Source of the DNA: an uncultured virus (IMG/VR IMGVR_UViG_3300014204_000136)
Lineage: Duplodnaviria; Heunggongvirae; Uroviricota; Caudoviricetes
IMG/VR virus record: IMGVR_UViG_3300014204_000136
DNA: 64,000 bases
Reading direction: 5' to 3' (one strand)
Position numbers and translations under genes: made by a program. Under the pieces are notes generated by a model. The model did no database searches. It was given only the letters and a program-made list of their open reading frames with translations, and was not told the DNA's origin. This document shows, in pieces, positions 2,281-48,426 of the stretch (position 1 is the first letter of the stretch; each line of letters starts with the position of its first letter).

Positions 2281-3759
2281 TTATTCTGCATCGCAGTATA
2301 AGATACCACTTGTAGTAGGATCTGCAAGCATAATACCCTGTTCAGTTAAGAAGTGAACTGAGTATCCGTCTTTTGCATTCGAACGAAGTGTATCAATAGA
2401 CTTAGCGTGTCCCTGATTTGGAGCTACAGAACCAGATGTATGCCATACAACTAATTCACGATCCTTACGAACAACTTTACGCAGGTTAGGTTCACCATCT
2501 CTCATTCCAGCATCAAGAATAATCATCTTGTAGGATTCGAGTGGCTTGCCTGATACTGGATGTAACTTACGATTATGAATCGTGTCATCGAGTATTGGTA
2601 AGTGTTTCAATGTCAGAGAGATACCATTAAGTCCTCTGTATGTGGTAAACTGTCCACCAAGTTCAAGGTTCTGACCTGAACCAGATACGAAGAACGAATG
2701 ATCCATGAATGTATACCCAGATGCCTTATCCCTAAGAACACGGTCAAACTCACGAAGAGCCATTTCCCCACCAAGAGCAATGAAATTACGATCACCAAAA
2801 CCACGAATATTATAGGTAAGATCTGACAGGAAACTGTCGAGGATCTCAAGGGTTAAGGTTGTGTAAGATCTCTTATTTGAAGGAGAAATCTGTTCTAATA
2901 GACCAGCACCAATACGAACTGGACGACCGTTAGTACCTTTAAGTCTAACTGTTCCATCTTCGGCCATATTGTATTTAGAGTATACCTGCCATCTATCTAG
3001 ACGTTCATACCACTGACGCCAAGCAGTCCATTCCTGATAAACAGACCAATATTTAGTTTCTTTCTTTGTTTTGGGATCTCTAAGAGAGATAACCATAACA
3101 GATGAAAAAGCATCACCACTTATGTCATAAGAAGCACGAATAATGCTAATCTGATTCCTCATTTTGAAAGGAGTCTGAGCATTAAAGATATCTGCTTCAT
3201 CTGACCATTCTTCATATGCTGAAGCTAAGCGGCTAACTCTACAACCAGGAAGAAGAAGTGAAGGCGGGGTAAAAGATTCATCTTTACCGTCAGCGCAAAC
3301 CAAGGTATAAACATAATCATTACCATCCATATAAGGTTCGCCGATTACTCTAGCCTGATAGTCGTTATCGTCAAATTCTACGATAGCTCCTGGTCCAAAC
3401 CATTTCTCAGCAGTCCATATTTGGTAGGTTGAATTAGCCATACCCGGCATTACACTAAGGTCGCTAGATGTAATCTCAGAACCATTATAAACTGCACGTT
3501 TGATAAGTATTGCCTTATCATGTTCAATCATGACATCCCATTCGTATGTAGGTCCTTCAACTGTAATAGTTCTACCCATACCGTTTGTGATATAGTCAAG
3601 AACGTTAGTGTTGTCAAAACGACCAAACATATATGAAATGACAGGAGAGATTTTTTCAGGTGCAGTTAACAGCAACCTTGATAATTCATCTTCACTATTT
3701 AGATCTGAGGTCCACTTTGTTTTGTAGATCTGCAGATTGTTAAGAATACCGTCAATCAT
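2281..3759 (-). CDS. major capsid protein
   Basis: 492 aa; crAss MCP-like motifs (GAGLLEQI, LGGQFTTYRGLNG, HPVSGKPLES, DGYSVH); downstream of portal/scaffold. Confidence 0.9.
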   Translation of the reverse strand: MIDGILNNLQIYKTKWTSDLNSEDELSRLLLTAPEKISPVISYMFGRFDNTNVLDYITNGMGRTITVEGPTYEWDVMIEHDKAILIKRAVYNGSEITSSDLSVMPGMANSTYQIWTAEKWFGPGAIVEFDDNDYQARVIGEPYMDGNDYVYTLVCADGKDESFTPPSLLLPGCRVSRLASAYEEWSDEADIFNAQTPFKMRNQISIIRASYDISGDAFSSVMVISLRDPKTKKETKYWSVYQEWTAWRQWYERLDRWQVYSKYNMAEDGTVRLKGTNGRPVRIGAGLLEQISPSNKRSYTTLTLEILDSFLSDLTYNIRGFGDRNFIALGGEMALREFDRVLRDKASGYTFMDHSFFVSGSGQNLELGGQFTTYRGLNGISLTLKHLPILDDTIHNRKLHPVSGKPLESYKMIILDAGMRDGEPNLRKVVRKDRELVVWHTSGSVAPNQGHAKSIDTLRSNAKDGYSVHFLTEQGIMLADPTTSGILYCDAE

Positions 3760-3784: not shown

Positions 3785-4960
3785 TTATTTGTTTAGTAAC
3801 AAAGAACTTAAATCGCTAAGCGGTGAAGATGAAGCTCTGCCAAAACTTGTATTGCCTCCCGCACTACTTTTGCCTTTTCCTGCTTTAAGCTTATTCCTTA
3901 CATCCTTGTAAGCATCATTAGCTCCTTGTTTTTTACTTTCAGTAATTAATTTATTAGAGAACTTCTTGAGAAAAGCGCGTTCTATTAAATTTTCTACTTG
4001 TGCTTTTGGATCTTGAAGATCTTTTTGCATTTGACTTAGACCGTTACGATCTTGTTTGAATATATAATCAAGTACTTCTTTCTTTTGATCTTTTGATACT
4101 TCAACTCCAAGAATAGACTTTGATTGCTCTACAGTATTATATACTGTATCAACAAATGCTTGTTTCGCCTTTTGCTGGTCTAGACTAAACTTTTCTTGTT
4201 CTGCTAATAGCTTTTTTGCCTTTTTATCCCTGGCTTCTTTTACCAAATCTAAGGCTTCTTCGGCCTCATCTTTAAGTACACCAGCGTCTTCATAGCGTTC
4301 TATTGCTTTCTCTATCCTATCCTTTTTATAGTTAGCATTAGATAGGTGTTCACGAAGAATTGCTTTTTGGTCATGTTCACTTTCAAGATCTATATTATCA
4401 ATATCTATTGTACCAACAATTATATCTTTATAATAGTCTTTTAGATTACCACCATCTTCTACAAATTTATTTAGAGATTCTATCTCCTCATTAGCAAATG
4501 TAGGTTTAGAATTTTCCTTGATAACATCTACCATTAGACTAATAACATCTTCTAATTTCTTAGCCTCAAAGTCTTCTGGTAAATCTATATCTAATTTCTT
4601 TGCCAAATCATCAGCAAAGTATTTACTTACAGATTCTTCATATTCATTTAATTCCTCGGAATCTTCCTCTTCTTCTTCCTCAGTCTCTTCTTCTTCCTCT
4701 TCGGAATCTTCTTCAACTTTTGGAGTTTTAACCTTAGGTGGTTTGATATCCTCTAGATCGGGATCATCAACTTCAACTTTAGGTTTCTTTACTTTCTTTC
4801 CTGGAGTAACATCGTCATCATCTATATTATCTATAACAACGGCATCATCGTCAGCATCGTCCTTAAACTTTGCGATTTCCTCAGTACCTCTATCGTCGTT
4901 CCTAACAAGCATTGACGAGATGGCATCAAATCCTCCGAATAGGTTTGTTTTATCACTCAT
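3785..4960 (-). CDS. acidic scaffold-like protein
   Basis: 391 aa, very acidic N-half and helical C-half, between portal and MCP. Confidence 0.65.
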   Translation of the reverse strand: MSDKTNLFGGFDAISSMLVRNDDRGTEEIAKFKDDADDDAVVIDNIDDDDVTPGKKVKKPKVEVDDPDLEDIKPPKVKTPKVEEDSEEEEEETEEEEEEDSEELNEYEESVSKYFADDLAKKLDIDLPEDFEAKKLEDVISLMVDVIKENSKPTFANEEIESLNKFVEDGGNLKDYYKDIIVGTIDIDNIDLESEHDQKAILREHLSNANYKKDRIEKAIERYEDAGVLKDEAEEALDLVKEARDKKAKKLLAEQEKFSLDQQKAKQAFVDTVYNTVEQSKSILGVEVSKDQKKEVLDYIFKQDRNGLSQMQKDLQDPKAQVENLIERAFLKKFSNKLITESKKQGANDAYKDVRNKLKAGKGKSSAGGNTSFGRASSSPLSDLSSLLLNK

Positions 4961-18970: not shown

Positions 18971-19056
18971 GAACTTATAGCTCAGCACGGTAGAGTGCAT
19001 AACCACATCCTCGGGAGACAGTTATGAGGTCATGGGTTCAAATCCCATTAAGTTCA
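18971..19056 (+). tRNA. tRNA-like gene with expanded anticodon arm (identity undetermined)
   Basis: acceptor GAACTTA/TAAGTTC, D-arm GCTC/GAGT, T-arm ATGGG-TTCAAAT-CCCAT; anticodon stem CATAA/TTATG encloses 19 nt. Confidence 0.7.
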
Positions 19057-19218
19057 CAAACTCATTCTTTTTTTTTTCACGGAGAGTCAATTGCAAGTAA
19101 CATACATTTAACGCCATTGACTGTATTTTTTATTGGTTTAATGACTCTCCGTGTTTTTTTACTTTTAAGTCCCTAATTTACAAACAACACATCTCTAATA
19201 GTCAAACAAATACATAAG

Positions 19219-19755
19219 ATGTTCAAAGAAAATAATGCATTACCAAGAGGATGTATGCATATGTTATGGCAAAAAGCAATCTATGCTATTATCCTATTAC
19301 TAATTACAGCTTGTGCTGTATTTGGACAACCTAATGTTAAACCAATATACCCTAATGCTATATCCATAGCAATAACACCAGAAGATAAAGGTATTGGTTT
19401 AAGATACGATCGATTCTTCAGTAATAATTACATTGGTATTGGTATATATAATACTACTACATATGGTAACTATAAACTACCAAATGAAGGACATATATAC
19501 AATCATGTACGTAATGTAATTGGCATATCTATGAGAATGTTTGGTAATTCATATGATCATACTTGTATTAATTTTGGTACAGTATATCATTATTATGGTT
19601 ACGCTGATTATGTAAAAGGTACATTAAATGAAGATGTATTTTTTCCATTATCATTAGAAATAGGTGTGCAAGGAGTTATTAAAAGAGTTAACTTTGGTTT
19701 TGGTATTGATCTACTGAAATCAGATGGATATGTTGTAATAGGTACATTATTCTAA
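19219..19755 (+). CDS. secreted outer-membrane beta-barrel-like protein
   Basis: signal-peptide-like AIYAIILLLITACAVFG, alternating beta-strands rich in G/Y, C-terminal Phe; true start may be ~19261. Confidence 0.5.
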   Translation: MFKENNALPRGCMHMLWQKAIYAIILLLITACAVFGQPNVKPIYPNAISIAITPEDKGIGLRYDRFFSNNYIGIGIYNTTTYGNYKLPNEGHIYNHVRNVIGISMRMFGNSYDHTCINFGTVYHYYGYADYVKGTLNEDVFFPLSLEIGVQGVIKRVNFGFGIDLLKSDGYVVIGTLF

Positions 19756-19766
19756 ATCAAAATACA

Positions 19767-19988
19767 ATGAAAGAACTAACAATTGAACAGAAAAAAGAAA
19801 TTTTACTAAAAGACAAAATAGTAAAATTAATATACAAAAAAACAGCTAAACAAATGGGCTACTCTGAATATATTAATTACAGAGGTAATGCCTTAGGTAA
19901 AGTTGTTACTGTAATTTGTAACTGTGATTTAGGATTCTGTGTAAAAGAATTCGATTACGTTCTTGATTACAAATTAATCGAAAAGTAA
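19767..19988 (+). CDS. hypothetical protein
   Basis: 73 aa ORF. Confidence 0.5.
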   Translation: MKELTIEQKKEILLKDKIVKLIYKKTAKQMGYSEYINYRGNALGKVVTVICNCDLGFCVKEFDYVLDYKLIEK

Positions 19989-19989
19989 T

Positions 19990-20325
19990 ATGATAAAAGT
20001 GTCAAATACACCTAATCACAAAATGCTTGTTATATCTGCAATCGTTATTGCATTACTATCATTAATGATAATGATAACAGGCTGTTCTAAAACATCATAT
20101 GCTGGACCAATGCAAGATGATTCTGCACCACCAGCACCAATGATGATTCAACCAATAGATACTAACAGAATAATTAGACATCTACATGAATCAGTTATAT
20201 ATGTATATCCATGTGACAATGGTAAACGTATTATAGCTGAATATTATAGAGAACGTCCATGGAATAAATGGAAACTATCTGTATATAAACGCAATTGCAA
20301 ACGTAAACCTCTTAATAAAAATTGA
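19990..20325 (+). CDS. putative lipoprotein
   Basis: hydrophobic leader ending in the lipobox-like ITGC. Confidence 0.55.
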   Translation: MIKVSNTPNHKMLVISAIVIALLSLMIMITGCSKTSYAGPMQDDSAPPAPMMIQPIDTNRIIRHLHESVIYVYPCDNGKRIIAEYYRERPWNKWKLSVYKRNCKRKPLNKN

Positions 20326-20326
20326 G

Positions 20327-20809
20327 ATGGAACGTGAACAATTTACAAATATAAGATTCAATAAAAACCAAGAAGAAATAGGTACATGCACAATATGTAA
20401 TAAAGATCCAATACTATTATCAAGTAGCCATAATTGTCTTTATCCAAAAAAGATGCAAATCGGTGAAGTAGCAATTATGAAAAATGCACCTGAAGAAGTA
20501 TTATTGGCTGCGAAATACATACGTCAGTATTCTAAAGCTTCAAGCAGAAAAATACCATTTACCTTATCATTTAGGAAATTTAAACAGTTAATGAAAATTA
20601 AATATTGTCAGTATACTGGTGTATTATTGGATAGAACAGATAAAACCTCTCCAAATTATCCATCTCTTGAACGAATAAATTCTGATGAAGGATATACAGA
20701 TAGTAATACTATTGTTTGTGCAGAATTTATTAATAAAGGTAAAAACAATCTGTCTCCAAAAGAGATAGAATCAATTTATTTGAGTCTTAAGAAAAAAGGA
20801 GTTATCTAA
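20327..20809 (+). CDS. HNH-like (His-Me finger) phage protein
   Basis: CQYTG...PSLERINSDEGYTDSNTIVC...NKGKN family motif. Confidence 0.55.
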   Translation: MEREQFTNIRFNKNQEEIGTCTICNKDPILLSSSHNCLYPKKMQIGEVAIMKNAPEEVLLAAKYIRQYSKASSRKIPFTLSFRKFKQLMKIKYCQYTGVLLDRTDKTSPNYPSLERINSDEGYTDSNTIVCAEFINKGKNNLSPKEIESIYLSLKKKGVI

Positions 20810-20912
20810 AATATACCAATAACCCACAGTGGTACAGTGGTCAGAAACAGAACTGATATCAAGTGAAGATCGGTTTGTGATGCTTCAAAGCATATGAGGT
20901 ATATAACAATAT

Positions 20913-21236
20913 GGGGATGACATGGATTTGACTGGTAAAATGAAGTACTTATTGCAACACGTATAGTATTATTACGTTAAAGAATGCACAAAATAAAAGG
21001 CGATAACAAAATTATCTCCATTGATCACAACCAGTACCTGCTAAGGCAGGCTAGTTAATCAATCTGGCTACGGAGCCATGGAACATAACACCGCACAGTT
21101 TATTGGTGTCGTAAACCAATTGGTGGAGCGGCTGACGAATTAAGACAGTCCCGGTTGTCTGTTAGAAAACAGTCTATTGTTGTAGGTATAAGTAAATAAG
21201 TTACACAGGACTCGGGTTCGATACCCGACATCTCCA
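20913..21236 (+). ncRNA. ssrA: tmRNA
   Basis: 5' GGGGATGACATGGATTTGAC; 3' GACTCGGGTTCGATACCCGACATCTCCA with G3:U alanine identity pair; tag ORF 20999-21058 GDNKIISIDHNQYLLRQAS*. Confidence 0.92.
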
Positions 21237-21260
21237 CATTTTTAATTAATAATCAAAACA

Positions 21261-21581
21261 ATGGCAACAAAATTCAAAAACAAAAAAGCAGCAATGGCTT
21301 TTGCAATGAAATTGCAAACCATTCCAACTAATACTCCTCTTGTAGTATTAAAAGCAAAAGGAGTACAGGATAGTTATAATGCAATATGTGATAATAATTT
21401 CTGCGATACTTGTATTGTAAATAATCCTACATTACATCCACATTGTATATTTGGACTTAATAGTGAGAACATGGAACTACGTCGTAGTAATCATACACAG
21501 AAAAGTCTTATAAAGGCTTGTAGAGCATTTGCTAAAGTACTAAGAGAAAGGATAAGATACAATGAAACTCATCTTGATTAA
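21261..21581 (+). CDS. hypothetical protein
   Basis: 106 aa, Cys cluster CDNNFCDTC...C. Confidence 0.55.
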   Translation: MATKFKNKKAAMAFAMKLQTIPTNTPLVVLKAKGVQDSYNAICDNNFCDTCIVNNPTLHPHCIFGLNSENMELRRSNHTQKSLIKACRAFAKVLRERIRYNETHLD

Positions 21582-21999
21582 TCCAGGTGGTAGTAAACTA
21601 TTTATAGTTAAACTTACCAAAGATATAACTGGTTTGAGTTTAAAAGAAGCAAAAACTCTTATCGATTGCGCACCTTCTGTAATAAAAGAAAGTGAAGATC
21701 TGAAAGAATTAAGATCTTTAAAGAAACAATTTGAAGGAGTTGGTGCAAGAATGGAAATAGTAATGAATAGTACTAAAGTTCCATCTTTCAAACAACGTGC
21801 TATCATTCAAGCTTTTGAAGAAGAATTGGCTCATCTCAGTGTATGCCCCGATATTAATGCAAAACAGCATGTAGGCGAATTGAATCCAGTATCTAACATA
21901 CTTGGACCAAATTCACATGATCCTATTCTTAATGAAGAGGAATCAGGTAAAATGGAAGATATATTATGTCAAATATATACTTTCTTAAGAGATCTTTAA
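21562..21999 (+). CDS. ribosomal protein bL12 (L7/L12) C-terminal-domain protein with C-terminal extension
   Basis: KLFIVKLTKDITGLSLKEAKTLIDCAPSVIKE...LKKQFEGVGARMEI matches the L7/L12 CTD (TGLGLKEAK). Confidence 0.8.
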   Translation: MKLILINPGGSKLFIVKLTKDITGLSLKEAKTLIDCAPSVIKESEDLKELRSLKKQFEGVGARMEIVMNSTKVPSFKQRAIIQAFEEELAHLSVCPDINAKQHVGELNPVSNILGPNSHDPILNEEESGKMEDILCQIYTFLRDL

Positions 22000-22028
22000 A
22001 GGATAACACATTTTAATCAAATACAGAA

Positions 22029-22235
22029 ATGACAAAAATTGAAGTTGGTAAAAAAGTAAACTGCACATTGACTGCAGAACAAAGGAACAAACTCGGTATC
22101 CAGAACGAAATCCAGAATCCTTGTACAGTAGCAGGTCATTACACAAATGGTGTAGCTGGTTATTATCTTACTGATGCAAATGGTAAAGGATTTGCTGTTG
22201 CTGATCGCTACGACGCATTAAAGGAAATAAGTTAA
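22029..22235 (+). CDS. hypothetical protein
   Basis: 68 aa, followed by a terminator. Confidence 0.55.
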   Translation: MTKIEVGKKVNCTLTAEQRNKLGIQNEIQNPCTVAGHYTNGVAGYYLTDANGKGFAVADRYDALKEIS

Positions 22236-22267
22236 TTCAAGTTAGCGATATTTCGGGAATTAACTAA

Positions 22268-22303
22268 AAGGGGAGTTGTCTACAATCCGACTCCCCTTAT
22301 TTT
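22268..22303 (+). terminator. intrinsic terminator
   Basis: AAGGGGAGTTG...CGACTCCCCTT then ATTTT. Confidence 0.65.
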
Positions 22304-22323
22304 ACTAACTATAATCCTAAATA

Positions 22324-22896
22324 ATGGAAGATATAGAATGCATAAAACAAACATTGAATGGTGATATTAATGCATTCAGAGGTTTAGTTGTTAAATACAA
22401 AGATGCCTTATATCTACACATTCTACGAAAAGTTCATAATAACATAACAGACACTGAAGATATTCTTAATGAAGTGTTCATAAAGGCCTATAGTAAATTA
22501 GATAGTTACAAAGAATCAACTGGTGGTATATATCCATGGTTATTAACCATAGCAAATAATCATATTATTGATTTTGCACGTAAAAAGAATAGAATACCAA
22601 AAGGTGATGATATTAACTACTTTAATGATATTGATCCTGCAACTAAAATTGCATCAGAAGATATGACTGTAGAAGAATTTATGATCAAATCTGAAGATAA
22701 TAAACTCGTGAGAGAAGTTATTGAGGAATTACCTTTATTTCAAGCCAATCTTATTAATATGTACTATTATAGAGATATGTCATATGAAGATATGGCTAAA
22801 GAATTAGGTAAACCAATTGGTACAATCAAAACTGGTCTACATAGAGCTAAACTTAAGTTGTCTAAATTGTTAGAAAACAACAAAAACATAAAATAA
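22324..22896 (+). CDS. ECF-family RNA polymerase sigma factor (SigW/RpoE-like)
   Basis: region 2 GDINAF...EDILNEVFIKAY...WLLTIANNHIIDFARK; region 4 MSYEDMAKELGKPIGTIKTGLHRAK. Confidence 0.9.
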   Translation: MEDIECIKQTLNGDINAFRGLVVKYKDALYLHILRKVHNNITDTEDILNEVFIKAYSKLDSYKESTGGIYPWLLTIANNHIIDFARKKNRIPKGDDINYFNDIDPATKIASEDMTVEEFMIKSEDNKLVREVIEELPLFQANLINMYYYRDMSYEDMAKELGKPIGTIKTGLHRAKLKLSKLLENNKNIK

Positions 22897-22897
22897 A

Positions 22898-23254
22898 ATG
22901 GAACTATCAAAAGGATTTAGCATTGATCCATCGTGTATATGGTATGATAATCATATTCATATTAAAGTAACCAAACTTGAAGAAAGCCCAACTGCTGAAG
23001 TTACAGACAATATTAAGATTGGTGAAGAAAGAAAAGGTTGCTGTACTATTGATTCATTACCATCAAAAGATAAAGCCTTTATGATGAGTGTATATGAAAG
23101 AAATGGTAGATCTCAAGAAGTAGGATCTTGGTTTCATACATCAGATGTACAGGATATAGTTGATTATCAAGTTGAGGCAGGTATTCTTAAGAGTATAAAA
23201 TTCTTAACAATCAATTCTATATATCTATTAGAAATATTGAAAGTTGAGAATTAA
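22898..23254 (+). CDS. hypothetical protein
   Basis: 118 aa; [10 protein letters not shown]...TINSIY resembles a phage family motif. Confidence 0.55.
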
Positions 23255-23267
23255 AAAAAGGAACAAT

Positions 23268-23350
23268 GCCCAGATGGTGGAATGGTAGACACGAAGGACT
23301 TAAAATCCTTTGTCTTAACAGATGTGCAGGTTCAAGTCCTGTTCTGGGTA
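23268..23350 (+). tRNA. tRNA-Leu(UAA)
   Basis: full cloverleaf, AAGGA-CTTAAAA-TCCTT, long variable arm, GCAGG-TTCAAGT-CCTGT. Confidence 0.92.
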
Positions 23351-23386
23351 CTAATCAAAAACTAATATAAAAAAAAAGAAAATAAT

Positions 23387-24172
23387 ATGTGTTGGTCAGA
23401 AACAGGTATGTCAGAAGGAGGTACTCCTATATATACAAGAACTCTATGGAATGGTGAATATGGAAGAAATAGAAGTCATTCTAGTATTAAAGAGTGTTCA
23501 TCGTCTTCAGAATTAGAGGAAAAACAAAGAAAGTCAAAAATAAAAAATAATTTAATAGTTTCTTTGAAAAGTAAAGAAAATATATCTTATTATTTACCTT
23601 TTGGCAAGAATTGTTTACCTTATGCAACTTCATTTTGTACTGAACATTGTCTTTTAAAAGAATTTCCCTTTAAGTCTAAAATGCAAAAAAGGATTCAAGA
23701 GATAAGTTTACAAAAAATTGAAGTAGATGATTTAATTAATAATATGGAAAAAAGTAAAAGTACATATTTTACATTATTTGCTTCAGGATGTATTGAAAAT
23801 ACTAATATTTCAATTAAATCCCTTATTTATAAGTTTAATAAAAAGTTTCCATCAAAATATTTAAGAATTTTTTTGAGGAGTTTTCAAGAAATAGATAAAT
23901 CGACTGAAAAAATTAAACTTATAACCTCAATTGATCATACAACTCCAATTCAAGAAATTACCAAAATAATATCAGGTAACACTTCTATTGCTATTATAGA
24001 TCATCCTAAAAATAAAGATTTAATTCTTTATTTACTACTTAGTATACAATTTAATACTTCAAAGTTAAAAAAAAGTATAAATTGTTCAGAATGTCATGGA
24101 CATAATCTTTGTTTCAAAGAGCCTAATAATTTCCTTTTAATCCAAGAACTAAAACAAAATAAATCAAAATGA
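23387..24172 (+). CDS. gp88-like / degenerate radical-SAM-like Cys-rich protein
   Basis: CLPYATSFCTEHC cluster, FTLFASG, C-terminal CSEC...C; very AT-rich. Confidence 0.4.
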   Translation: MCWSETGMSEGGTPIYTRTLWNGEYGRNRSHSSIKECSSSSELEEKQRKSKIKNNLIVSLKSKENISYYLPFGKNCLPYATSFCTEHCLLKEFPFKSKMQKRIQEISLQKIEVDDLINNMEKSKSTYFTLFASGCIENTNISIKSLIYKFNKKFPSKYLRIFLRSFQEIDKSTEKIKLITSIDHTTPIQEITKIISGNTSIAIIDHPKNKDLILYLLLSIQFNTSKLKKSINCSECHGHNLCFKEPNNFLLIQELKQNKSK

Positions 24173-24335
24173 ATGAAGATCTAAAACAACAACTAACTAA
24201 TCTACTAAATTATGCTCATGTTAGAGGAGATACATATTCTATTCTAGCTGCAAAAGAATTTGAAAATTAGGTTAAAGAGGTAATAAAAAACCTCGATGAA
24301 GATTTTGATTTTACAAATGTAAAAAGGAAAGAATA

Positions 24336-24728
24336 ATGACAGATCAATTAATATCATTTCCAACAGCTAAATTAGCTAAAGAAAAAGGATTTCCACAAGG
24401 AAATAATAATGGTATATATCATACTGAACCAAAAAATCACAATACTGGAGATAGAGGACAATACATAAATCATGAACGATTTTTAATAATTACTCAATCT
24501 CTACTTCAAAGATGGCTAAGAGAATATAAGTTTCTCCATATTAGTATTACATATAAAGAAGTTAAGGGTAAAAAAATAGAAGGTATTAATTCCGTATACT
24601 TTGATATTGAAATATATCGGTTGACTGGCGGGGATGCTTGGAAAACGTATAAATTTGAGGGTTACTCTGATAATTATGAAAAATGCCTTGAAAAAGGATT
24701 ACAAGAAGCATTAAACTTAATACCATAA
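24336..24728 (+). CDS. conserved Bacteroidota-phage protein
   Basis: ISFPTAKLAKEKGF...TQSLLQRWLRE...YEKCLEKGLQEAL. Confidence 0.6.
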   Translation: MTDQLISFPTAKLAKEKGFPQGNNNGIYHTEPKNHNTGDRGQYINHERFLIITQSLLQRWLREYKFLHISITYKEVKGKKIEGINSVYFDIEIYRLTGGDAWKTYKFEGYSDNYEKCLEKGLQEALNLIP

Positions 24729-24732
24729 AATC

Positions 24733-24927
24733 ATGATAAAAGGACTAATATTAATAGTACTTGCATCAATGTCTCTATTTGGTGCTATATCTGAATATCC
24801 TAATTGGGATACAATGTTTGGACCATTACCGTCTCAAAAACCTATTATTAAAGTATGGGTACTACGTTTAATATGTGTTTTATTATTCACAGTACTGTTT
24901 ACTATAATAAATAGTATGATCAAATAA
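24733..24927 (+). CDS. small membrane protein
   Basis: two hydrophobic segments. Confidence 0.5.
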   Translation: MIKGLILIVLASMSLFGAISEYPNWDTMFGPLPSQKPIIKVWVLRLICVLLFTVLFTIINSMIK

Positions 24928-24937
24928 ACTAACTATC

Positions 24938-25267
24938 ATGACAGATAAAGAATTTTGTGATCTCTATAACTCTTATACTGGAGAAGGAAGTATGATGAGT
25001 GGTATTGATAGTTTAACACAACTAAAACAACATACCTTTAATGGTGAAGAATTAAAAGAATTCATTGAACATTGTATTTCTCAGTATCAACATACACAAT
25101 ACAATCCCTGTTCTAATTGTAAAGATGATCCATGTCCTGGTAGAAACAATTGTAAGAAGATACCATGGAATATCTACCATAAAGAAGAAGAACTACTTAA
25201 ACTTGATGAAGCAAAACCTATGACAACACAGTGTGAGGAAGATGTTGATCCCTCAGATGATGAATAA
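24938..25267 (+). CDS. hypothetical protein
   Basis: 109 aa, CSNC...C...C. Confidence 0.5.
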   Translation: MTDKEFCDLYNSYTGEGSMMSGIDSLTQLKQHTFNGEELKEFIEHCISQYQHTQYNPCSNCKDDPCPGRNNCKKIPWNIYHKEEELLKLDEAKPMTTQCEEDVDPSDDE

Positions 25268-25422
25268 AAATATTAAAAGGAAAAAAGAAATACTACTACA
25301 AAACACGATAAGCTCAGCCTGTTAAGTTATATCTCACGTGACATTGAAAAAGGGTTAACACTAGATGTTTCACCGCAGTCAGATATAGAATCAGTAACCC
25401 TGCGTAGTAGTATTTCCCATAT

Positions 25423-25496
25423 TGACATGTATATCAGTTGGTTAGATAGCCTTCCTGATAAGGAGGAGGTCGTAGGTTCAAGTCCTACCATGTCAA
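25423..25496 (+). tRNA. tRNA-Ile(GAU)
   Basis: TGACATG/CATGTCA acceptor, CCTTC-CTGATAA-GGAGG, GTAGG-TTCAAGT-CCTAC. Confidence 0.9.
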
Positions 25497-25610
25497 CAAA
25501 TCACTAATCCCTTAAGTGTAATACAATGAAAAATTTGGCAAAAGTTGTGGAGAAACTTGAAGAAGAAACTCCATTAAGAATCAAAAACAAAAATCGTAAA
25601 AACGAACCAA

Positions 25611-29095: not shown

Positions 29096-29478
29096 ACGGT
29101 GATAAATCACAAATAAACGATGTCAATATCGCCATGCTTTCTACGATGTTCAGAAAAGTAGCAGCAGATGGTACTGATAACATAGAAGAAGGAGTAGGTA
29201 CACTCTCAACTTCAAGTACGGTTCTACAAACCAGAGATGACTTAATACTCTTCTTAAAGGATCAAAAACACAGCAATTGTTTTTTCTATATCTATACTGG
29301 TAGTTTAGATGAGAGAAATTTAGTTCTTGTTATGAACACTGTTGCTGAAAGAAATGAACAAACCAGAGATTTTGCAATAGTAATTGCTAACAGCTGGGAT
29401 AAGTTTGATGTACGTCAAACAACTGTAAGTTCAAAAGTATTAACAATTGTAGCTACGTATGACCAAAGAGCAAAATAA
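29092..29478 (+). CDS. hypothetical protein
   Basis: 128 aa ORF. Confidence 0.6.
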   Translation: MNGDKSQINDVNIAMLSTMFRKVAADGTDNIEEGVGTLSTSSTVLQTRDDLILFLKDQKHSNCFFYIYTGSLDERNLVLVMNTVAERNEQTRDFAIVIANSWDKFDVRQTTVSSKVLTIVATYDQRAK

Positions 29479-30910
29479 AAGATTCTTCCTGTTTGAGATA
29501 ATGAATTCATTCTCAGACAAAGAATTAAAGTTGGTAAATCGTTATATAGGGTATTATAATTCGGTAAAACAGCAAGATGTTATATTGCTGATAAATAATA
29601 CAACTACGTTTCTCTATTCGCTAATTGCATGTCTTAATGTAAAGCGAAACATCTACATCATTAATCCAAATGAATCAAGAGACTATATCTGGGGTATCAT
29701 AACTAAGCATTTAAAGGATAAAGTTGTAATAACTGATTCCCCTTCATGGTATAAAGACATTATTCAATCTGAATTTTGTCCAATCAAAATGATTACATTA
29801 TCACCTGATGCAGATCCTTACGAATGTTTATCACTTGAAAATATAGCGATAGTACATACATTCGATCCAAATAGTAAACCATTCATCTTCAATACATTAT
29901 CATTAGATGATATCTATTTTGGGATAAAAGATTCTTTTGCAAAACACAAGATTTTTGTTGATAAAGATTTTTGGGTTTGGACTAAGAATCCGCATGATTA
30001 TTTTATGTATTATTTTGTATTAAAAGAACTAAGATCAGATAGGGAGATAGATATGAAACCTTCTCTTCCAGCAACAGATAAAAGTACGATATTCTTGGAA
30101 TATCAACTACTATTAAATATCTGGGATAGTATAATGTCCGATTTTCTACAAAATAAATTGTTCTTTAAGTGGATCTTTAAGAAGTATATTGGAGAAATAA
30201 TACTCAAAATTTTGAGATGGAAATTAAAAAGACATTTCAAAAGATACTCACACATTGTGATTTTGGGTATAGTAAAAGACACTTTATTAGCAGAAATGCT
30301 TATGAAATGGAAAGACAAGAAAGTGTTTAATATTTACGGTGAATCAAATAATCTGATGTTTTTAAATATATCAGACAAACCTGGCACTGTAGATCTCACT
30401 TCCATTGATGATTATTTATTTAATCTTCATGATAAAATACAAACAGAAAAAGGAACAGTAGGAAGATTAGCTTCAAGAGATTGGAATAATCCTTTAAGTA
30501 CTGTAATTTCTTCAATTTATTTCTTGTTGGAATCGAACAAAGAAAGGTATGCTACCTATTATGGATATAAGTTTAAAAACTTACCAATTTTTCCACATAA
30601 GGTAGAATCTCTAATGGATATTATTCCATTCATCAAAACAAGTTTATTTGTTCAATATATGAACAGAAATATCTTGTTATATGATCCTGATATGGATATG
30701 TTAGACAGATCCAATTATACTTTAAAACAATTGGAAGGATGTGCGGAATATGAAGGTATTTTACCTAAATATATCAAACATTTAAATTCCAAGATTCTGT
30801 CTAAGAATGAACAAATTACTGAGTTCAGGAATATTCCTAAACTTATTAATAAATACAATAGATTTGGTGAATTGAACAAACAAGCAGCCTACGCTGTAGA
30901 ATTACTTTAA
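29459..30910 (+). CDS. highly diverged adenylate-forming (ANL / acyl-CoA synthetase-like) protein, probably inactive
   Basis: ILLINNT...LIACL...IINPNES (N-domain), NIYGESN (YGxTE), PIFPHKVESLMDIIPFIKTSL (NIYPEEIE); P-loop position reads HTFDPNSKP. Confidence 0.45.
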   Translation: MTKEQNKRFFLFEIMNSFSDKELKLVNRYIGYYNSVKQQDVILLINNTTTFLYSLIACLNVKRNIYIINPNESRDYIWGIITKHLKDKVVITDSPSWYKDIIQSEFCPIKMITLSPDADPYECLSLENIAIVHTFDPNSKPFIFNTLSLDDIYFGIKDSFAKHKIFVDKDFWVWTKNPHDYFMYYFVLKELRSDREIDMKPSLPATDKSTIFLEYQLLLNIWDSIMSDFLQNKLFFKWIFKKYIGEIILKILRWKLKRHFKRYSHIVILGIVKDTLLAEMLMKWKDKKVFNIYGESNNLMFLNISDKPGTVDLTSIDDYLFNLHDKIQTEKGTVGRLASRDWNNPLSTVISSIYFLLESNKERYATYYGYKFKNLPIFPHKVESLMDIIPFIKTSLFVQYMNRNILLYDPDMDMLDRSNYTLKQLEGCAEYEGILPKYIKHLNSKILSKNEQITEFRNIPKLINKYNRFGELNKQAAYAVELL

Positions 30911-30920
30911 CCACCAAAAA

Positions 30921-32530
30921 TATATAGCCGAAGACGATTAAGAATTCCGTCAATATCAACACTGTTGGGTAGGTCCTCTCATAGCGACGACTGATGATCC
31001 ATAATTTGTTTTTACACGGGGTACTCTATCGAAAAATTGTACAATCACGAAAAGTCTGATACTGGAATAGCTTTTTAAATGTCAAACTTATTACGATGTT
31101 CGAAATAGCTGGGAACTGCTATTAAACCTTTAGGTTAGATTCTAAGGAACTAGTTCGTTTTTGAACTTTGGAACGAAATCTCGGTCGTAATAAAGTGTAT
31201 TTATACACAACATACTAAGTATTCTTCTGGGTTACAAACCGCAAATTTGTATTGAGGATTCTTTATGATAAAAGAACAAGATCATGTATCAGTACAATAA
31301 AAGTAAATAGTAATTCTTAATTAATACCAAACTGATACTTGCAATAAATGGGAGATATATACTATTGCACTGAGTATATGTCTTTGCTGTGATGTCCCTA
31401 AAAATAAAATAGTCTTCAAGATTGCAAGAGGAGAATTGTTATCTATCAAATAATGGAAAATAAAGACTTTATCAACCCAGATCAAACTCGATATCCTACC
31501 TAGATCACAAGGGAAATTATGATGATAAAGACAGTTATTTGTATAGTTAACTAAATTATGCCAGAAATGAGAGCAAAGACAATGGTTGGGCTATATAGAT
31601 TGCGAATGCCCCACGTAAGTGTAAAGGAAACGAAATCATAATCAAATGTCGTAACGCATCGTGCTTGCGCCCTGTCACGTTAAAATGAGGGAATCTACTA
31701 CCAGACGATAGAATCTGGGTTGAGAGAAATCTTGGGAATTTAAACTGAGAGAAAAGAATCAGTCAACTGCAAAACTGATGTAGAAAAAGTTATCTAACTG
31801 TTAATAGGTATGTGCGGTAAGTTGGTTGCTGTAATGGCTTGAAGGGTTCGAATCCCACCTCCAAAAGAGAGTATCCAAGAACGTAATTACTAATAGTGTT
31901 CTACTGAAATACAACAGATAGTTTTGAACTGTACAGAAACTGTTGAAAATAAGTATATGAAGGTTTAGTAATGATACTAGATGTGCGCAAATCGTCTAGG
32001 GTAAAAGGAGACCAATGTTAGTGTGTTAAGCTCCATGCTAATCCTCTGCCAAAAGCTGAATGTAACTGTATTTATGAATTCGATTATTGGATTCTCTATT
32101 TAACCACAATGAAGAGTATTTAATATTCCAAACTGCACAGATAAATGATCTTATGGGGAAGCTCAGACGTATAAAAGCGGATCATTTACAGTAAGTGGTA
32201 CTAAAATAGTCGAAAAGCTGGCTTGAGTCGAGATAGTATACTCAAGATGGTCATATGATGGAATGAATTATTATTTTATTAAGAGAGAGTGCGAAAGTTC
32301 GCTAGTCGAGCTACATTTCTCGTACTAGTGGCGCTAGTGTTAACCTGTAGAAATCTATATATACAAAATATGTAGGTAAAGTAGGATCATTAAGCATCCG
32401 TCTAGTCAAGTAGCTACCAAGATGAAATATGGACAGCATCCGTGTAACGTAATAACTAATGAAATCGACCATTAAACAACGCTGAATGCGTTAAATAATT
32501 TTAAATTATGTTCATAGAATAATGAACACA
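30921..32530 (+). ncRNA. candidate giant structured ncRNA (one ~1.6-kb RNA or two tandem RNAs)
   Basis: no ORF of 60 aa or more in 1.7 kb; TATATAGCC(30921)/GGCTATATA(31589) closing helix, many internal helices, tRNA-like T-arm GGG-TTCGAAT-CCC at 31843-31855. Confidence 0.65.
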
Positions 32531-32636
32531 TTTCTACGCTGTAACAATACATGCTAGTTATTAACAGATCATATCAAAGTTATTAACAAAATTCAAGGTA
32601 TGAATTATTATAGTAGTAGGGATAGATAACAACCGA

Positions 32637-33209
32637 ATGAGTAGTGTATATTATTTATTCAAAAAGCGTAAGAAGGAAAGACGAGGTTCAACTATCGAAG
32701 TGAATGATAACGCAATTCCTGATTATTTATCTCTCTACTTTTTTATTAACAACTTAATCCAATATCACATGGAAGGCTATGAATTTAAACTAATACAAAG
32801 TTATGCGCCAACAATGGATGGGAGAATAGTTGTTGAAGATTCTAACGTAGGTGGAATAAAAAACACATATCGTATTAGTTTTATAAAATATATCTGTATT
32901 GGTAAATTTACTATCATATTCTCCAGAAAAGTTCTTGGGGTTAAAGGATTTTTAAAACCTTATAAGAAAGTATGGAATAAATATACCAACAGATTAAAAA
33001 AACCGTATTGGGGTAAAAAGAATTCACCCTTTACCAATTTGTGGATAGTATTAACATCAGATTACAAAACGCTGGGAAACAGATTTATAAACTCTGAAAC
33101 AACTACCCAGTCTTTTAAAGTTAAAGTTTTAGGGATCTCATTTAGATCTACAACCTTAGGTAAAAATCTTAATAAATGTTCAAATTTTATCATTAATCAA
33201 AAAAATTAA
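32637..33209 (+). CDS. basic hypothetical protein
   Basis: 190 aa, Lys-rich; start uncertain. Confidence 0.5.
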   Translation: MSSVYYLFKKRKKERRGSTIEVNDNAIPDYLSLYFFINNLIQYHMEGYEFKLIQSYAPTMDGRIVVEDSNVGGIKNTYRISFIKYICIGKFTIIFSRKVLGVKGFLKPYKKVWNKYTNRLKKPYWGKKNSPFTNLWIVLTSDYKTLGNRFINSETTTQSFKVKVLGISFRSTTLGKNLNKCSNFIINQKN

Positions 33210-38920: not shown

Positions 38921-39913
38921 ATGGTAAAATCAAAAACACCTAATTATAAGAAAAAAATAAATCTACTCGAAAAAGAGTTAGATGAAAAGAATAGGATGCT
39001 ATTTAATAAAGATAGCATAAGCCTCGATAACTTAACTGATTTTGAGGCTTTTACTATTAAACCAAATAGGTCCCTAAAGGAACAATGTACTGCTATAACA
39101 CAATTTGGAGATGGCCATTTTGATGAAATCGTAAATCCAAACGTGACAAATGGATTAAATGAATATAATCCAGAAATAGCACGAAAACGTACAGAAAGAT
39201 ACGCATCAAGATTAATTTATATGTTACGCCTCTATAAACGAGCTGGCATAAAAATAAATAATCTTGTATTACATCTTGTTGGTGACTTTATATCAGGTTG
39301 GATACATGAAGAATTAGTACAAACTAATGCAATGTCTCCTGTTCAAGCTACTTTGTTTGCAGAAGAATTGCTAATAAAATGTATCAAAACAATCGGTGAA
39401 TATGAAGGTCTTAATAAGATAGTAATAGTTTGTAATACAGGTAACCATAGTAGGATAACAAAGCGAAATCAATTCAAAAATTCAGTTGAGACTTCCTTTG
39501 AATATCTATCTTACAAACATATTGAAGAACACTTCAAAAATAATGGATATCAAAACATCGAATTTATTATCCCAGTATCACCAATCATATATTATAAAGT
39601 ATATGATAAAATGAATTTGTTTACTCATGGTAACAGATTTCAATATCAAGGTGGCATTGGTGGTATAGAAGTCCCATTAAAGAAATGGTTACATCGAGAA
39701 AATACCGTCATGCCGTTTGATATGGCATGGATGGGACATTGGCATCAATATTTATGTGGTACCAAAATACGTATAAATGGTCCTGTTATAGGTTACAATG
39801 AAATGGGTAGGTATTATGGCTTTACTCCAGAACCACCTATGATGCAATTCCAGTTACTTGATGAAAAAAGAGGTTATACCTGGAATTGTCCTATAATCTT
39901 GGAAGATTTTTAA
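38921..39913 (+). CDS. calcineurin-like metallophosphoesterase
   Basis: GDGHFD, GDFISG, GNHSR, THG and GHWH motifs. Confidence 0.85.
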   Translation: MVKSKTPNYKKKINLLEKELDEKNRMLFNKDSISLDNLTDFEAFTIKPNRSLKEQCTAITQFGDGHFDEIVNPNVTNGLNEYNPEIARKRTERYASRLIYMLRLYKRAGIKINNLVLHLVGDFISGWIHEELVQTNAMSPVQATLFAEELLIKCIKTIGEYEGLNKIVIVCNTGNHSRITKRNQFKNSVETSFEYLSYKHIEEHFKNNGYQNIEFIIPVSPIIYYKVYDKMNLFTHGNRFQYQGGIGGIEVPLKKWLHRENTVMPFDMAWMGHWHQYLCGTKIRINGPVIGYNEMGRYYGFTPEPPMMQFQLLDEKRGYTWNCPIILEDF

Positions 39914-46527: not shown

Positions 46528-48426
46528 CGACAGTACTCCAGAAATAAAGCATATAAGTAAAGCTTCAGATGAAATAGTGACATATATTGACAATCGCCGT
46601 AAAGGTATTGTCAAGTCATTACGGACAAAATGGGCTAAGTTTAATCATGCTGCAATGGGGGGGATTGAACCAAATATCATAATGACCATAGCTGGTATAA
46701 GTGGTAGTGGTAAATCATCATTTGTAAACAGTTTAGAAACCGATATTGTTGATTTAAATAGAGATCAGGAAATCATTGTATTATCTTTTAATTTTGAGAT
46801 GCTTTCAAGCCGTCAAGTTGGTAGGAAGTTATCTTATAAATTAACAAAGACAACTGGTGAATTATATTCAACAGGATATGATGGTGAACCTGTTTCAGAC
46901 GAACTATTCAATGAAGTAGTTAAAGAAGCAGAACACATTAAACATTACCCAGTATATTATGTAGATGTCCCCTGTACTGTCGATCAAATCGGTAGTATAA
47001 TAAGACGTTTTCAGTTTAGTGAGAATACAAAGAATAAATGGTTGGTAGTAATACTTGATCATACTTTACTAACAAGAGGTAAGTCCGGAGAACAAGAAAG
47101 GGAAACCTTGGCTAACCTTCAGAAACTTTTTATGGAAGTTAAGAAAACTGGAAGAACTACAATAATACAATTAAGTCAAATGAATCGAGAGATTGAGTCG
47201 TCTGAAAGGATAACCAACCCTACTATGCACTTTCCTATGCGTAGAGATCTTTTTGGATCAGATTCATTATTTCAAGCTTCAGATTACGTCATTGTCTTAC
47301 ACCGACCCGAACTATTAGGAATTAAAAGTTATTCTCCAAATAATTGGCCTGTACAAAATAAAATATACATGCACTTCCTAAACAAAAATGAAACCTTTTA
47401 ATATTTTTTACGTATAAGTATAAAATACTTAATAATGGAAAATATTAAAACTTTAAATATACAAAAAAATGGTAAACCTTGTATTTATAAAATTCAGAAT
47501 AAAATAAATAATAAAATTTATATTGGTTCTGCAATTTGACATTATAAAAGAAAAGGTCAACATTTTTATTTACTACGTAATAATAAACACTTTAATAGTC
47601 ATCTTCAAAATTCTTGGAATAAATATGGTGAACAAAATTTTATATTTGAAGTGTTAGAATTTATTCAAGATCCTTCTACTTTAAAAGAAAGAGAAGAATA
47701 TTATATTAATATATATACTTCTAATAATCCAGAAATTGGATTTAATCATAGAGTTTTTTGTACTACTAATTTAGGTATAAAAAGATCTTTAGAAAGTAGA
47801 TTAAAACAATCGCGTAGTAAAAAAGGAATTACTCCAAATATTAATTATGTAGTAGTATCTAAATTAAATAGTAAACAAGTAACTGGTATAAATAAAAATA
47901 CTAATGAAAGAATATTATTTGATTCTATTAAACATGCTGGAGAGATTTTAAAAATACAAAGAACAAGTATATCCAAAGTTTTGCACAAAAAATTAAAGAG
48001 TGCAGGAGGTTATTATTGGGACTTTATTGAGCAATCAATATCGAATAATCCAGTGAATTCAGTGAAAACCTGTGATGGCAACACTGAGCCAAGTTCATCG
48101 AATAGTATAATAGTAGATGAAAAGGTGCAACGACTAATAGGTGAGGAACTTACCAATAATCCTAACACGAGCGCTGGACAACCTAAAGATGGATATGAAG
48201 TAAAATTTGATTATGAAATGGGAGTTAAATTATCAATACCAGATTATTTCAAATTACTTCAAGAAATACAATAGGCTGATGATATAGTCTAGTCTTATAA
48301 TAATAAGAATTATAAGCAATAGTATTAAAAAACTATTGATAATAAAAACGAAAAGTGAGAGAAGGTGAACCAAAAATACTAAGTTTTGTAAATAATCTTA
48401 AGTATAACAGAATTGACGAAGTTTAA
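46508..48426 (+). CDS. dnaB: DnaB-like replicative helicase, spliced: join(46508..47379,48351..48426)
   Basis: AGISGSGKS, ILDH, LSQMNR, LFGSDSLFQASD; splicing restores HFL-KVREGEPKILSFVNNLKYNRIDEV* (KxRxG arginine finger). Confidence 0.88.
47389..47414 (+). promoter_or_regulatory. ECF-type promoter TGAAAC-N16-CGTA inside the intron
   Basis: 20 nt upstream of the homing endonuclease ATG. Confidence 0.55.
47435..48274 (+). pseudogene. GIY-YIG homing endonuclease with in-frame TGA
   Basis: MENIK...PCIYKIQNKINNKIYIGSAI*HYKR...HLQNSWNKYG..F.FEVLE; TGA at 47537-47539; NUMOD1-like C-terminus. Confidence 0.8.

Follow-up and report, generated by a model that had tools for sequence, protein, structure and literature searches.

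A candidate large structured RNA gene in an intergenic gap of an environmental crAss-like phage genome

The window analysed here—the whole stretch of 64,000 nucleotides (nt) from the uncultured virus of IMG/VR record IMGVR_UViG_3300014204_000136—contains, between 16.4 and 54.9 kb, a block of closely packed plus-strand genes that includes the ribonucleotide reductase (RNR) gene and replication genes and that is interrupted, between an open reading frame (ORF) of 483 amino acids (aa) and another of 190 aa, by a long intergenic gap (positions 30911–32636). That gap, the largest in the window (the next largest measuring about 570–690 nt), is the subject of this work, and we propose, with a probability of about 0.6 and on comparative sequence evidence, that it encodes a large structured RNA not described before, on the plus strand of an environmental crAss-like phage; the broader statement that a real, functional structured RNA resides in the gap we consider very probable. 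No ORF of at least 60 aa was found in the gap under genetic code 11, under code 4, or with either TAG or TAA read as glutamine, and the reassignment of TAG, TGA, or TAA opened no frame spanning it; the longest ORF present, of 54 aa, lies on the minus strand, and the sole plus-strand ORF of at least 30 aa has 35 aa. The ORF-free character that an initial annotation, made from the sequence alone, had attributed to this stretch is therefore upheld.

The same annotation had described the stretch as densely paired, and all the complementary strings that it listed are indeed present at their positions; as to the density itself, the description holds only weakly, the pairing being barely above chance. 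Perfect inverted repeats are modestly enriched—58 at a word length (k) of 8, against 38.6 ± 8.5 in 100 dinucleotide shuffles, one of which was as high, and 8 at k = 10, against 2.6 ± 2.0, with 2 of the 100 shuffles as high—whereas the folding energies, given below, do not differ significantly from those of shuffles. Moreover, chance alone would produce about 11 complements of 9 bp like TATATAGCC/GGCTATATA in the gap.

With respect to relatives, blastn with the gap and tblastn with the three nearest proteins gave no match among 50,697 phage records, and in IMG/VR the flanking proteins gave either no match or just the two known contigs. The route to the relatives was the RNR gene, located 3.7 kb downstream of the gap, which gene led to IMG/VR contigs whose RNR is 75–79% identical. 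The nearest record collected (G001) ends at window position 39436, short of the gap; of the contigs reached through the RNR, L005 and L004 extend far enough upstream, and in both an ORF-free gap of ~1.3 kb directly follows the homolog of the 483-aa ORF. Syntenic ORF-free gaps after a homologous ORF of 480–504 aa are present in L005, L004, and L113, the last of which was added, together with L102, by a motif scan of metagenomes in which 4 of the 30 stretches were true. A pattern scan of viral contigs gave three contigs only and a genome scan one, and the motif scans also added L115 (97% identical to L005) and L116. The record L115 corresponds to contig DHFP01000006.1, filed in a metagenome-assembled genome labelled "Clostridiales bacterium"; this contig is probably a mis-binned phage sequence, and we take its filing as no evidence of a host. 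The comparison set thus consisted of seven sequences—the window and six relatives—from about four lineages, a gap of 1.2–1.3 kb occupying the syntenic position in the six relatives.

Among 80 collected loci, blastn with the gap matched only L005 and L004, over ~300 nt at 62–65% identity, and nhmmer profiles likewise found only L004 and L005. The shared words form collinear anchors from window position 31546 to 32460, and the anchor motifs are collinear in all seven sequences. Profiles built from the relatives recognised the window through their middle block (31639–31878, E 2.6e-12), their 3' block (32119–32445, E 1.8e-22), and, weakly, their last block (E 3e-4), while the full-length profile aligned window positions 31556–31878 and 32119–32752. 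A core of ~950 nt (~31546–32500) is conserved in sequence while the flanking protein has almost dissolved; at the DNA level the core can be recognised from ~31546 to 32560, though the adjoining protein is just 27% identical. Covariance model R2, when searched over 98 sources (1.18 Mb, with the six relative loci excluded), recovered no copy other than that of the window. In the relatives, the final ~120 nt of the apparent gap correspond by homology to the opening ~40 codons of the 190-aa ORF of the window, so that their non-coding stretch amounts to about 1.2 kb.

Upstream of the core, the relatives can also be aligned over the initial ~120 nt of the gap (alignment A13), the nhmmer match of this start being only weak (E 3.4). 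The positions ~31051–31545 have no counterpart in the ~1.2 Mb of collected loci; an nhmmer profile of the relatives' 5' domain gave no window match, and covariance model R1, built from that same domain, gave nothing significant in the window, its best result (E 0.44) being in the wrong place. The 675-nt 5' domain that the initial annotation had delimited can therefore not be maintained as a conserved unit, since only its first ~120 nt align and about 500 nt lack a counterpart; the 3' arm of its proposed closing helix lies, furthermore, inside a window-specific insertion of 64 nt.

Consensus structures were obtained with RNAalifold from two alignments, one of the 3' domain in the seven sequences (A5) and the other of the whole gap in the six relatives (A6). 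The former comprised 84 pairs, with 94.5% of the cells paired and 31 pairs changed on both sides, which number compares with 14.5 ± 2.4 in 500 shuffles, none of which was as high, and with 2–5 for slid partners; the latter comprised 261 pairs, with 96.6% of the cells paired and 56 pairs changed on both sides, as compared with 28.7 ± 3.4 in shuffles and 3–9 with slid partners. In a held-out test among the relatives, the structure was predicted without one lineage, whose substitutions were then scored, and the four hold-outs were summed; as a control, a 900-nt stretch of coding DNA lying downstream in these contigs was treated by the same recipe. Double changes kept the pair in 29 of 41 instances in the gap, versus 36 of 107 with slid partners and 7 of 16 in coding DNA, and one-sided changes did so in 48 of 100, versus 350 of 854 and 30 of 124, respectively. 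When apportioned by region, the double changes that kept the pair were 11/11 in the 3' domain (where 19/24 one-sided changes did likewise), 10/16 in the middle, 5/6 in the 5' domain of the relatives, and 2/2 in the tail. For the consensus fold, column shuffling gave a z of -10.6 in A5 and of -2.3 to -4.9 in coding blocks. In the relatives, pairing is kept by compensatory changes beyond the controls, most clearly in the 3' domain (32100–32460). The search for Crassvirales homologs and covariation that the initial annotation had suggested has thus yielded six related contigs along with the held-out result, and its proposal of a large structured non-coding RNA in the gap gains support from the conservation in relatives and from the compensatory pairing.

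That annotation had named eleven elements—ten helices and a tRNA-like T-arm—of which four are conserved in the relatives and seven lie within window-only sequence. The conserved ones are the helix TAAATGATC/GATCATTTA, with four compensatory changes (UAAAUGAUC/GAUCAUUUA in the window versus UAAUAUAUU/AAUAUAUUA in L005); the helix CTTGAGT/ACTCAAG (CUUGAGU/ACUCAAG as RNA), with one compensatory change; the CCAG/CTGG hairpin, listed there as CCAGA/TCTGG; and the T-arm, which is a T-loop hairpin. Specific to the window are the five helices of the 5' domain, ATCAGT/ACTGAT, and CTAGATG/CGTCTAG. As predicted structures, the four-change helix, CUUGAGU/ACUCAAG, CUAC/GUAG, and the 7-bp helix of the junction described below are individually convincing.

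The character of the pairs bears on the nature of the element. The cells of A5 contain 65 G-U against 7 A-C combinations, and the consensus fold is stabler on the plus strand in all three alignments (with consensus energies, forward versus reverse, of -121 versus -99 in A5 and -360 versus -310 in A6). Since G-U is tolerated but A-C is not, and since the plus strand folds better, the paired element would be RNA and not DNA. Furthermore, no 3-base periodicity is seen in the substitutions, nor do the relatives conserve any frame. Taken together, these features make a DNA site or a dead gene less likely than an RNA with the same reading direction as the flanking genes.

A number of results weigh against the proposal of a large structured RNA gene. 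The naive compensatory count is nearly equal in coding DNA (33 of 184) and in the gap (40 of 205); this count is inflated because the structure was chosen on the same data, so that weight can be given to the held-out and slid controls only. Even in those tests the predicted long-range helices went unsupported, with the pair kept in 1 of 6 double changes, and when the window itself was held out the pair was kept in 7 of 14 double and 5 of 26 one-sided changes, values not above those of slid partners, which weak fit is probably due in part to an uncertain alignment at such a distance. Of the 84 consensus pairs the window satisfies 60, and the relatives' 5' and middle blocks have z values of -3.9 and -4.0, indistinguishable from those of coding DNA. 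The entire comparison involves only seven sequences from about four lineages. For the window sequence alone, the minimum-free-energy z is not significant, either in 30911–31610 (-0.62) or in 31590–32480 (-0.45); because the latter, which is the conserved and covarying part, also has a z of -0.45, we regard single-sequence energy as uninformative in this AU-rich RNA. No promoter was identified for a gap RNA, and the sole terminator-like site is weak. Finally, the tentative link to translation is drawn from the neighbourhood, in a phage genome that is collinear.

Under the favoured reading, the RNA would begin with a short conserved leader (30930–31050), followed by a lineage-specific region of ~500 nt here and ~220 unrelated nt in the relatives, then by a middle part in which a 7-bp helix closes a junction that holds a T-loop hairpin, and lastly by a highly conserved 3' domain of multiple hairpins with invariant single-stranded blocks. 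Table 1 gives the coordinates of these parts along with those of the neighbouring features.

Table 1. Positions within the window of the gap, of its proposed parts, and of features in the surrounding gene block.
Feature	Positions	Strand	Remarks
ORF-free intergenic gap	30911..32636	+	Between the 483-aa and 190-aa ORFs, both +
Conserved gap start, small hairpin GACG...CGTC (30933-30951)	30930..31050	+	Alignment A13
Window-specific variable region, ~500 nt	31051..31545	+	No homolog in ~1.2 Mb of collected loci; no significant profile or R1 match
Conserved core start	31546..31730	+	Shared words, alignment
Helix CUAC/GUAG (31695-31698 with 31780-31783)	31695..31783	+	CGAC/GUCG in relatives, compensatory
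Junction, 7-bp closing helix GUUGGUU (31821-31827)/GACCAAU (32010-32016)	31821..32016	+	
Conserved 3' domain	32100..32460	+	nhmmer E 1.8e-22; z -10.6; 11/11 double changes
Terminator-like hairpin AACGC-UGAAU-GCGUU with A/U-rich tail	32478..32502	+	Weak
Tail: hairpin UGUUCAU...AUGAACA (about 32509-32527), run-up to next gene	32505..32636	+	
483-aa ORF	29459-30910	+	Upstream neighbour of the gap; stop TAA 30908-30910
190-aa ORF	32637-33209	+	Downstream neighbour of the gap; ATG 32637
Full-length transfer-messenger RNA (tmRNA)	20913-21239	+	Rfam 93.9 bits; ARAGORN tag peptide GDNKIISIDHNQYLLRQAS
145-aa protein with ribosomal L7/L12 C-terminal domain	21562-21999	+	E 1.2e-14; directly after the tmRNA
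Sigma-70 family protein, regions 2 and 4	22324-22896	+	After the L7/L12-like gene
Group I intron	48002-48309	+	Rfam 77.8 bits; overlaps ORF 47651-48274

The gap start has in common with the relatives the blocks GGTAGGTC, GA(C)TGATGAT, and ACGGG.TAC as well as the shared word CCGTCAATA. The variable region that follows, in which four of the previously proposed 5'-domain helices are located, stands in place of the ~220 nt of the relatives, which sequence is unrelated but covaries. At the start of the core an invariant AGAAAUGAGAGCA (31563–31575) is succeeded by a helix GACA/UGUC (31578–31581 with 31647–31650), whose loop carries the 64-nt insertion (31583–31646) and whose equivalent in the relatives (their helix 14) covaries, and by the hairpin CCAG/CUGG (31701–31704 with 31715–31718). 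The pairing of the 7-bp helix that closes the junction was read by eye in the window from the alignments and differs from that of the relatives by one change of G-C to U-A; the junction, to which helices 23, 24, and 26 of the relatives correspond, encloses a GCU./.GGC hairpin and the T-loop hairpin GGG-UUCGAAU-CCC (31844–31856) along with a window-specific insertion of ~118 nt at about 31884–32000.

In the 3' domain the invariant blocks are CUGCACAGAUAA (32133), UUACAGnAAGU, AGUGCGAAA (32288), GCUAGUGU (32333), AAAGUAGG (32378), CCGUCUAGU (32398), and AGUAGCU (32409); its helices pair 32142–32150 with 32180–32188 and 32222–32228 with 32240–32246, and hairpins occupy about 32352–32377, 32384–32399, and 32416–32433. 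The invariant single-stranded blocks between the covarying hairpins look like sites of tertiary contact or ligand binding, not spacers. As to the 3' end, the terminator scan found the hairpin at 32478–32502 as its only site, shuffles giving 0.9, and this hairpin is a possible end of the RNA. The tail hairpin beyond it is conserved in the relatives (their helix 43), and the tail may belong to the RNA or may instead be the leader of the next gene.

How much of the gap belongs to a single RNA is a question on which the evidence divides. A composite locus would consist of a compact conserved RNA of ~360–950 nt, made up of the 3' domain alone or of that domain plus the middle, together with unrelated non-coding material: hairpins of the next gene's leader, the terminator of the previous gene, and a fast-evolving spacer of 500 nt. 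The held-out support, strong only in the 3' domain, weaker elsewhere, and absent for the long-range helices, is what such an arrangement would lead one to expect, as are the lack of a counterpart for 31051–31545, the raised G+C content and positive GC skew that begin only near 31350–31500, and the position of the terminator-like site ahead of the tail hairpins. The very start of the gap, nevertheless, is conserved too, the relatives' own 5' domain keeps its pairs upon hold-out, and GOLLD is known to combine a variable 5' half with a 3' half that is conserved; we regard the composite as unlikely, though deserving of attention, and that one molecule spans the whole 1.6 kb we find doubtful in turn. 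A DNA-level element—a replication origin or a packaging site—or a decayed gene would fit with the AT-rich composition, the modest excess of inverted repeats, and the unremarkable single-sequence folding energy of the gap; yet the scarcity of A-C relative to G-U combinations and the better folding of the plus strand speak against a DNA site, as does the absence from the gap of iterons and tandem repeats, while a decayed gene is at odds with the lack of a frame or periodicity in any relative, and either alternative with a sequence conservation above that of the adjoining protein gene. We deem both of them highly improbable.

A structured RNA in the gap might, alternatively, belong to a class already described. 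At gathering scores cmscan with 4227 Rfam families found nothing in the gap, and at E up to 10 it gave only chance-level matches along with a match of 13 nt to the tmRNA T-arm; the gaps of the relatives gave no Rfam match at E up to 5. The GOLLD model (RF02032; 416 positions, gathering score 150 bits) had no match within the window, even with E allowed up to 10, and, in three relative records, gave only a fragment of 13 nt and 4.5 bits in one record, outside the gap, so that the loose resemblance of the 3' part to GOLLD mentioned in the initial annotation finds no support. The ROOL model (RF03087; gathering score 99.1 bits) likewise had no match, although the control genomes of the dedicated search gave none either, which makes that search weak by itself. 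ARAGORN detected neither a transfer RNA (tRNA) nor a tmRNA in the gap or in the six relative loci, and neither the group I nor the group II models, including the group II domain model, matched in the gap, which intron search can be trusted because the group I model finds the intron at 48002–48309. The comparison with Rfam covariance models that had been recommended at the outset has thus returned no family—GOLLD, ROOL, and introns included—and, in view of these results, membership of the gap RNA in a described family could not be detected. That it should be a very divergent GOLLD or ROOL is accordingly a slight prospect: being phage-borne, lying downstream of an island of tRNAs and tmRNA, joining a variable 5' to a conserved 3' part, and having a T-loop hairpin where GOLLD sometimes carries tRNAs would all agree with it, and the silence of both models, in the window as well as in the relatives' gaps, contradicts it, with the reservation stated for the ROOL control.

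A self-splicing intron, or another mobile ribozyme devoid of an ORF, is scarcely credible. The window does hold a group I intron elsewhere, and a GUGCG motif resembles group II intron 5' ends; but besides the failure of the intron models, the C-terminus of the upstream ORF is conserved in the relatives and the next ORF has its own ATG, so that the gap lies between genes and not inside one.

Regarding the genome, a protein match to the Crassvirus major capsid family (E 5.5e-166; ORF 2281–3759, minus strand) identifies the source of the window as a crAss-like phage genome of the Crassvirales; as that capsid protein is less than 60% identical to the capsids of all 136 matching phage records, the lineage would be a distant, environmental one. 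Near-identical DNA was found in two DNA sequencing runs, one from a landfill, possibly the source, and one from groundwater, with no variation seen; among the runs listed as containing the sequence, none was of RNA. Three tRNAs and the tmRNA, detected with Rfam and ARAGORN within 18971–25497, form an island 5–12 kb upstream of the gap; the tmRNA is kept in the relatives, with 82 bits in the L005 record and weaker matches in two others. The L7/L12-like and sigma-70 genes that follow the tmRNA look, together with the tRNAs, like a block for taking over translation and transcription. In the 207-aa ORF that the group I intron overlaps (47651–48274), a NUMOD-like homing-endonuclease domain is matched weakly (E 8e-5), under the Pfam cut-off.

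The 483-aa ORF that precedes the gap has a homolog, only 27% identical, in synteny in all the relatives that reach that far. Pfam and PDB sequence searches with its protein gave no match; an ESM Atlas model, of low confidence, resembles the fold of AMP-binding (ANL) adenylating enzymes at a TM of 0.6–0.67, and the AlphaFold model is poor (pLDDT 44.9). The 190-aa ORF after the gap is a single frame in the window and is split in the relatives (L005 4324–4880, L004 about 4290–4869) into a small frame of ~20–37 aa, in which ...YLS-D/E-DE-x-AF...L-x-LY-x-FF is conserved, and a main ORF beginning with a Met equivalent to window residue 44, the break being at a run of T; the two arrangements may reflect a pair of genes, a gene fusion, or a site of frameshifting. 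An imperfect direct repeat flanks the whole gap (30889–30905 and 32534–32550; 14 of 17 letters, with CTACGCTGTA in common), of which kind several exact 10-mers are expected by chance at such a size and composition, according to a rough estimate.

As to function, the RNA would be made together with the rightward early or middle genes, perhaps being cut out of their transcript, would possibly end near the terminator-like hairpin, and might act in trans as a folded scaffold, by analogy with what has been proposed for GOLLD and ROOL. Because the same gene block has three tRNAs, a tmRNA, and an L7/L12-like protein, the most likely partner would be the translation or tRNA machinery of the host, which link to translation we put forward as tentative. 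Bolder still, and to be considered improbable, is the idea that the whole gap forms one multi-domain particle of 1.2–1.7 kb, possibly a homo-oligomer, whose T-loop junction and 3' domain engage host tRNAs or ribosomes in a takeover module with the tRNAs, the tmRNA, and the L7/L12-like protein. If confirmed, an RNA adjoining a tmRNA and an L7/L12-like gene would offer a new subject for structural work and an angle on its role in infection; and should it be one transcript, no structured RNA of phages or bacteria other than ribosomal RNA would be known to surpass it in size. There is also a point of method, in that naive covariation counts were nearly as high in coding DNA and the held-out tests alone separated the gap from it.

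Apart from introns, RNase P, and the ribosome, very few classes of non-coding RNA that are both large and intricately folded are known. The two carried by phages, GOLLD and ROOL, were recently found to build cages out of RNA alone, to which no purpose has been assigned, GOLLD self-assembling into a closed 14-mer cage. In the literature searched, most subscription journals not being covered, we found no description of the gap RNA and no link of crAss-like phages with such RNAs. The candidate appears to represent a real new family, a conserved structured RNA of a rare crAss-like lineage, and by analogy it is closest in kind to GOLLD and ROOL.

According to Kretsch et al., GOLLD and ROOL are large, ornate phage RNAs near tRNA islands, and GOLLD, which prophages also carry and which often lies close to such islands, has a conserved 3' region, a variable 5' region, and a linker that sometimes holds tRNAs. 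The gap RNA resembles GOLLD in being phage-borne, in its conserved 3' domain and variable 5' part, and in having a tRNA/tmRNA island upstream, which combination is common to other large RNAs and does not by itself define GOLLD; the T-loop hairpin, moreover, occupies a middle position corresponding to the tRNA-bearing linker. GOLLD, in contrast, measures about 800 nt, as against ~950 nt for the conserved part and 1.2–1.7 kb for the whole gap here, and the gap RNA contains no complete tRNA, comes from environmental Crassvirales, and has no covariance-model match. ROOL is a large structured phage RNA near tRNA islands, with neither a known function nor a known protein partner; the gap RNA is likewise large, phage-borne, and near such an island, whereas ROOL has about 570 nt and other motifs, and its model does not match. 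With tRNA and tmRNA the likeness is confined to the hairpin, whose 7-nt loop UUCGAAU (UUNRAAU in relatives) sits on a G-C stem and to which the Rfam T-arm positions 349–361 of tmRNA align at 31844–31856 with 9.7 bits only; the hairpin has no acceptor, D, or anticodon arm. If our reading is true, the RNA of this gap would constitute an independent third family beside GOLLD and ROOL, larger than either.

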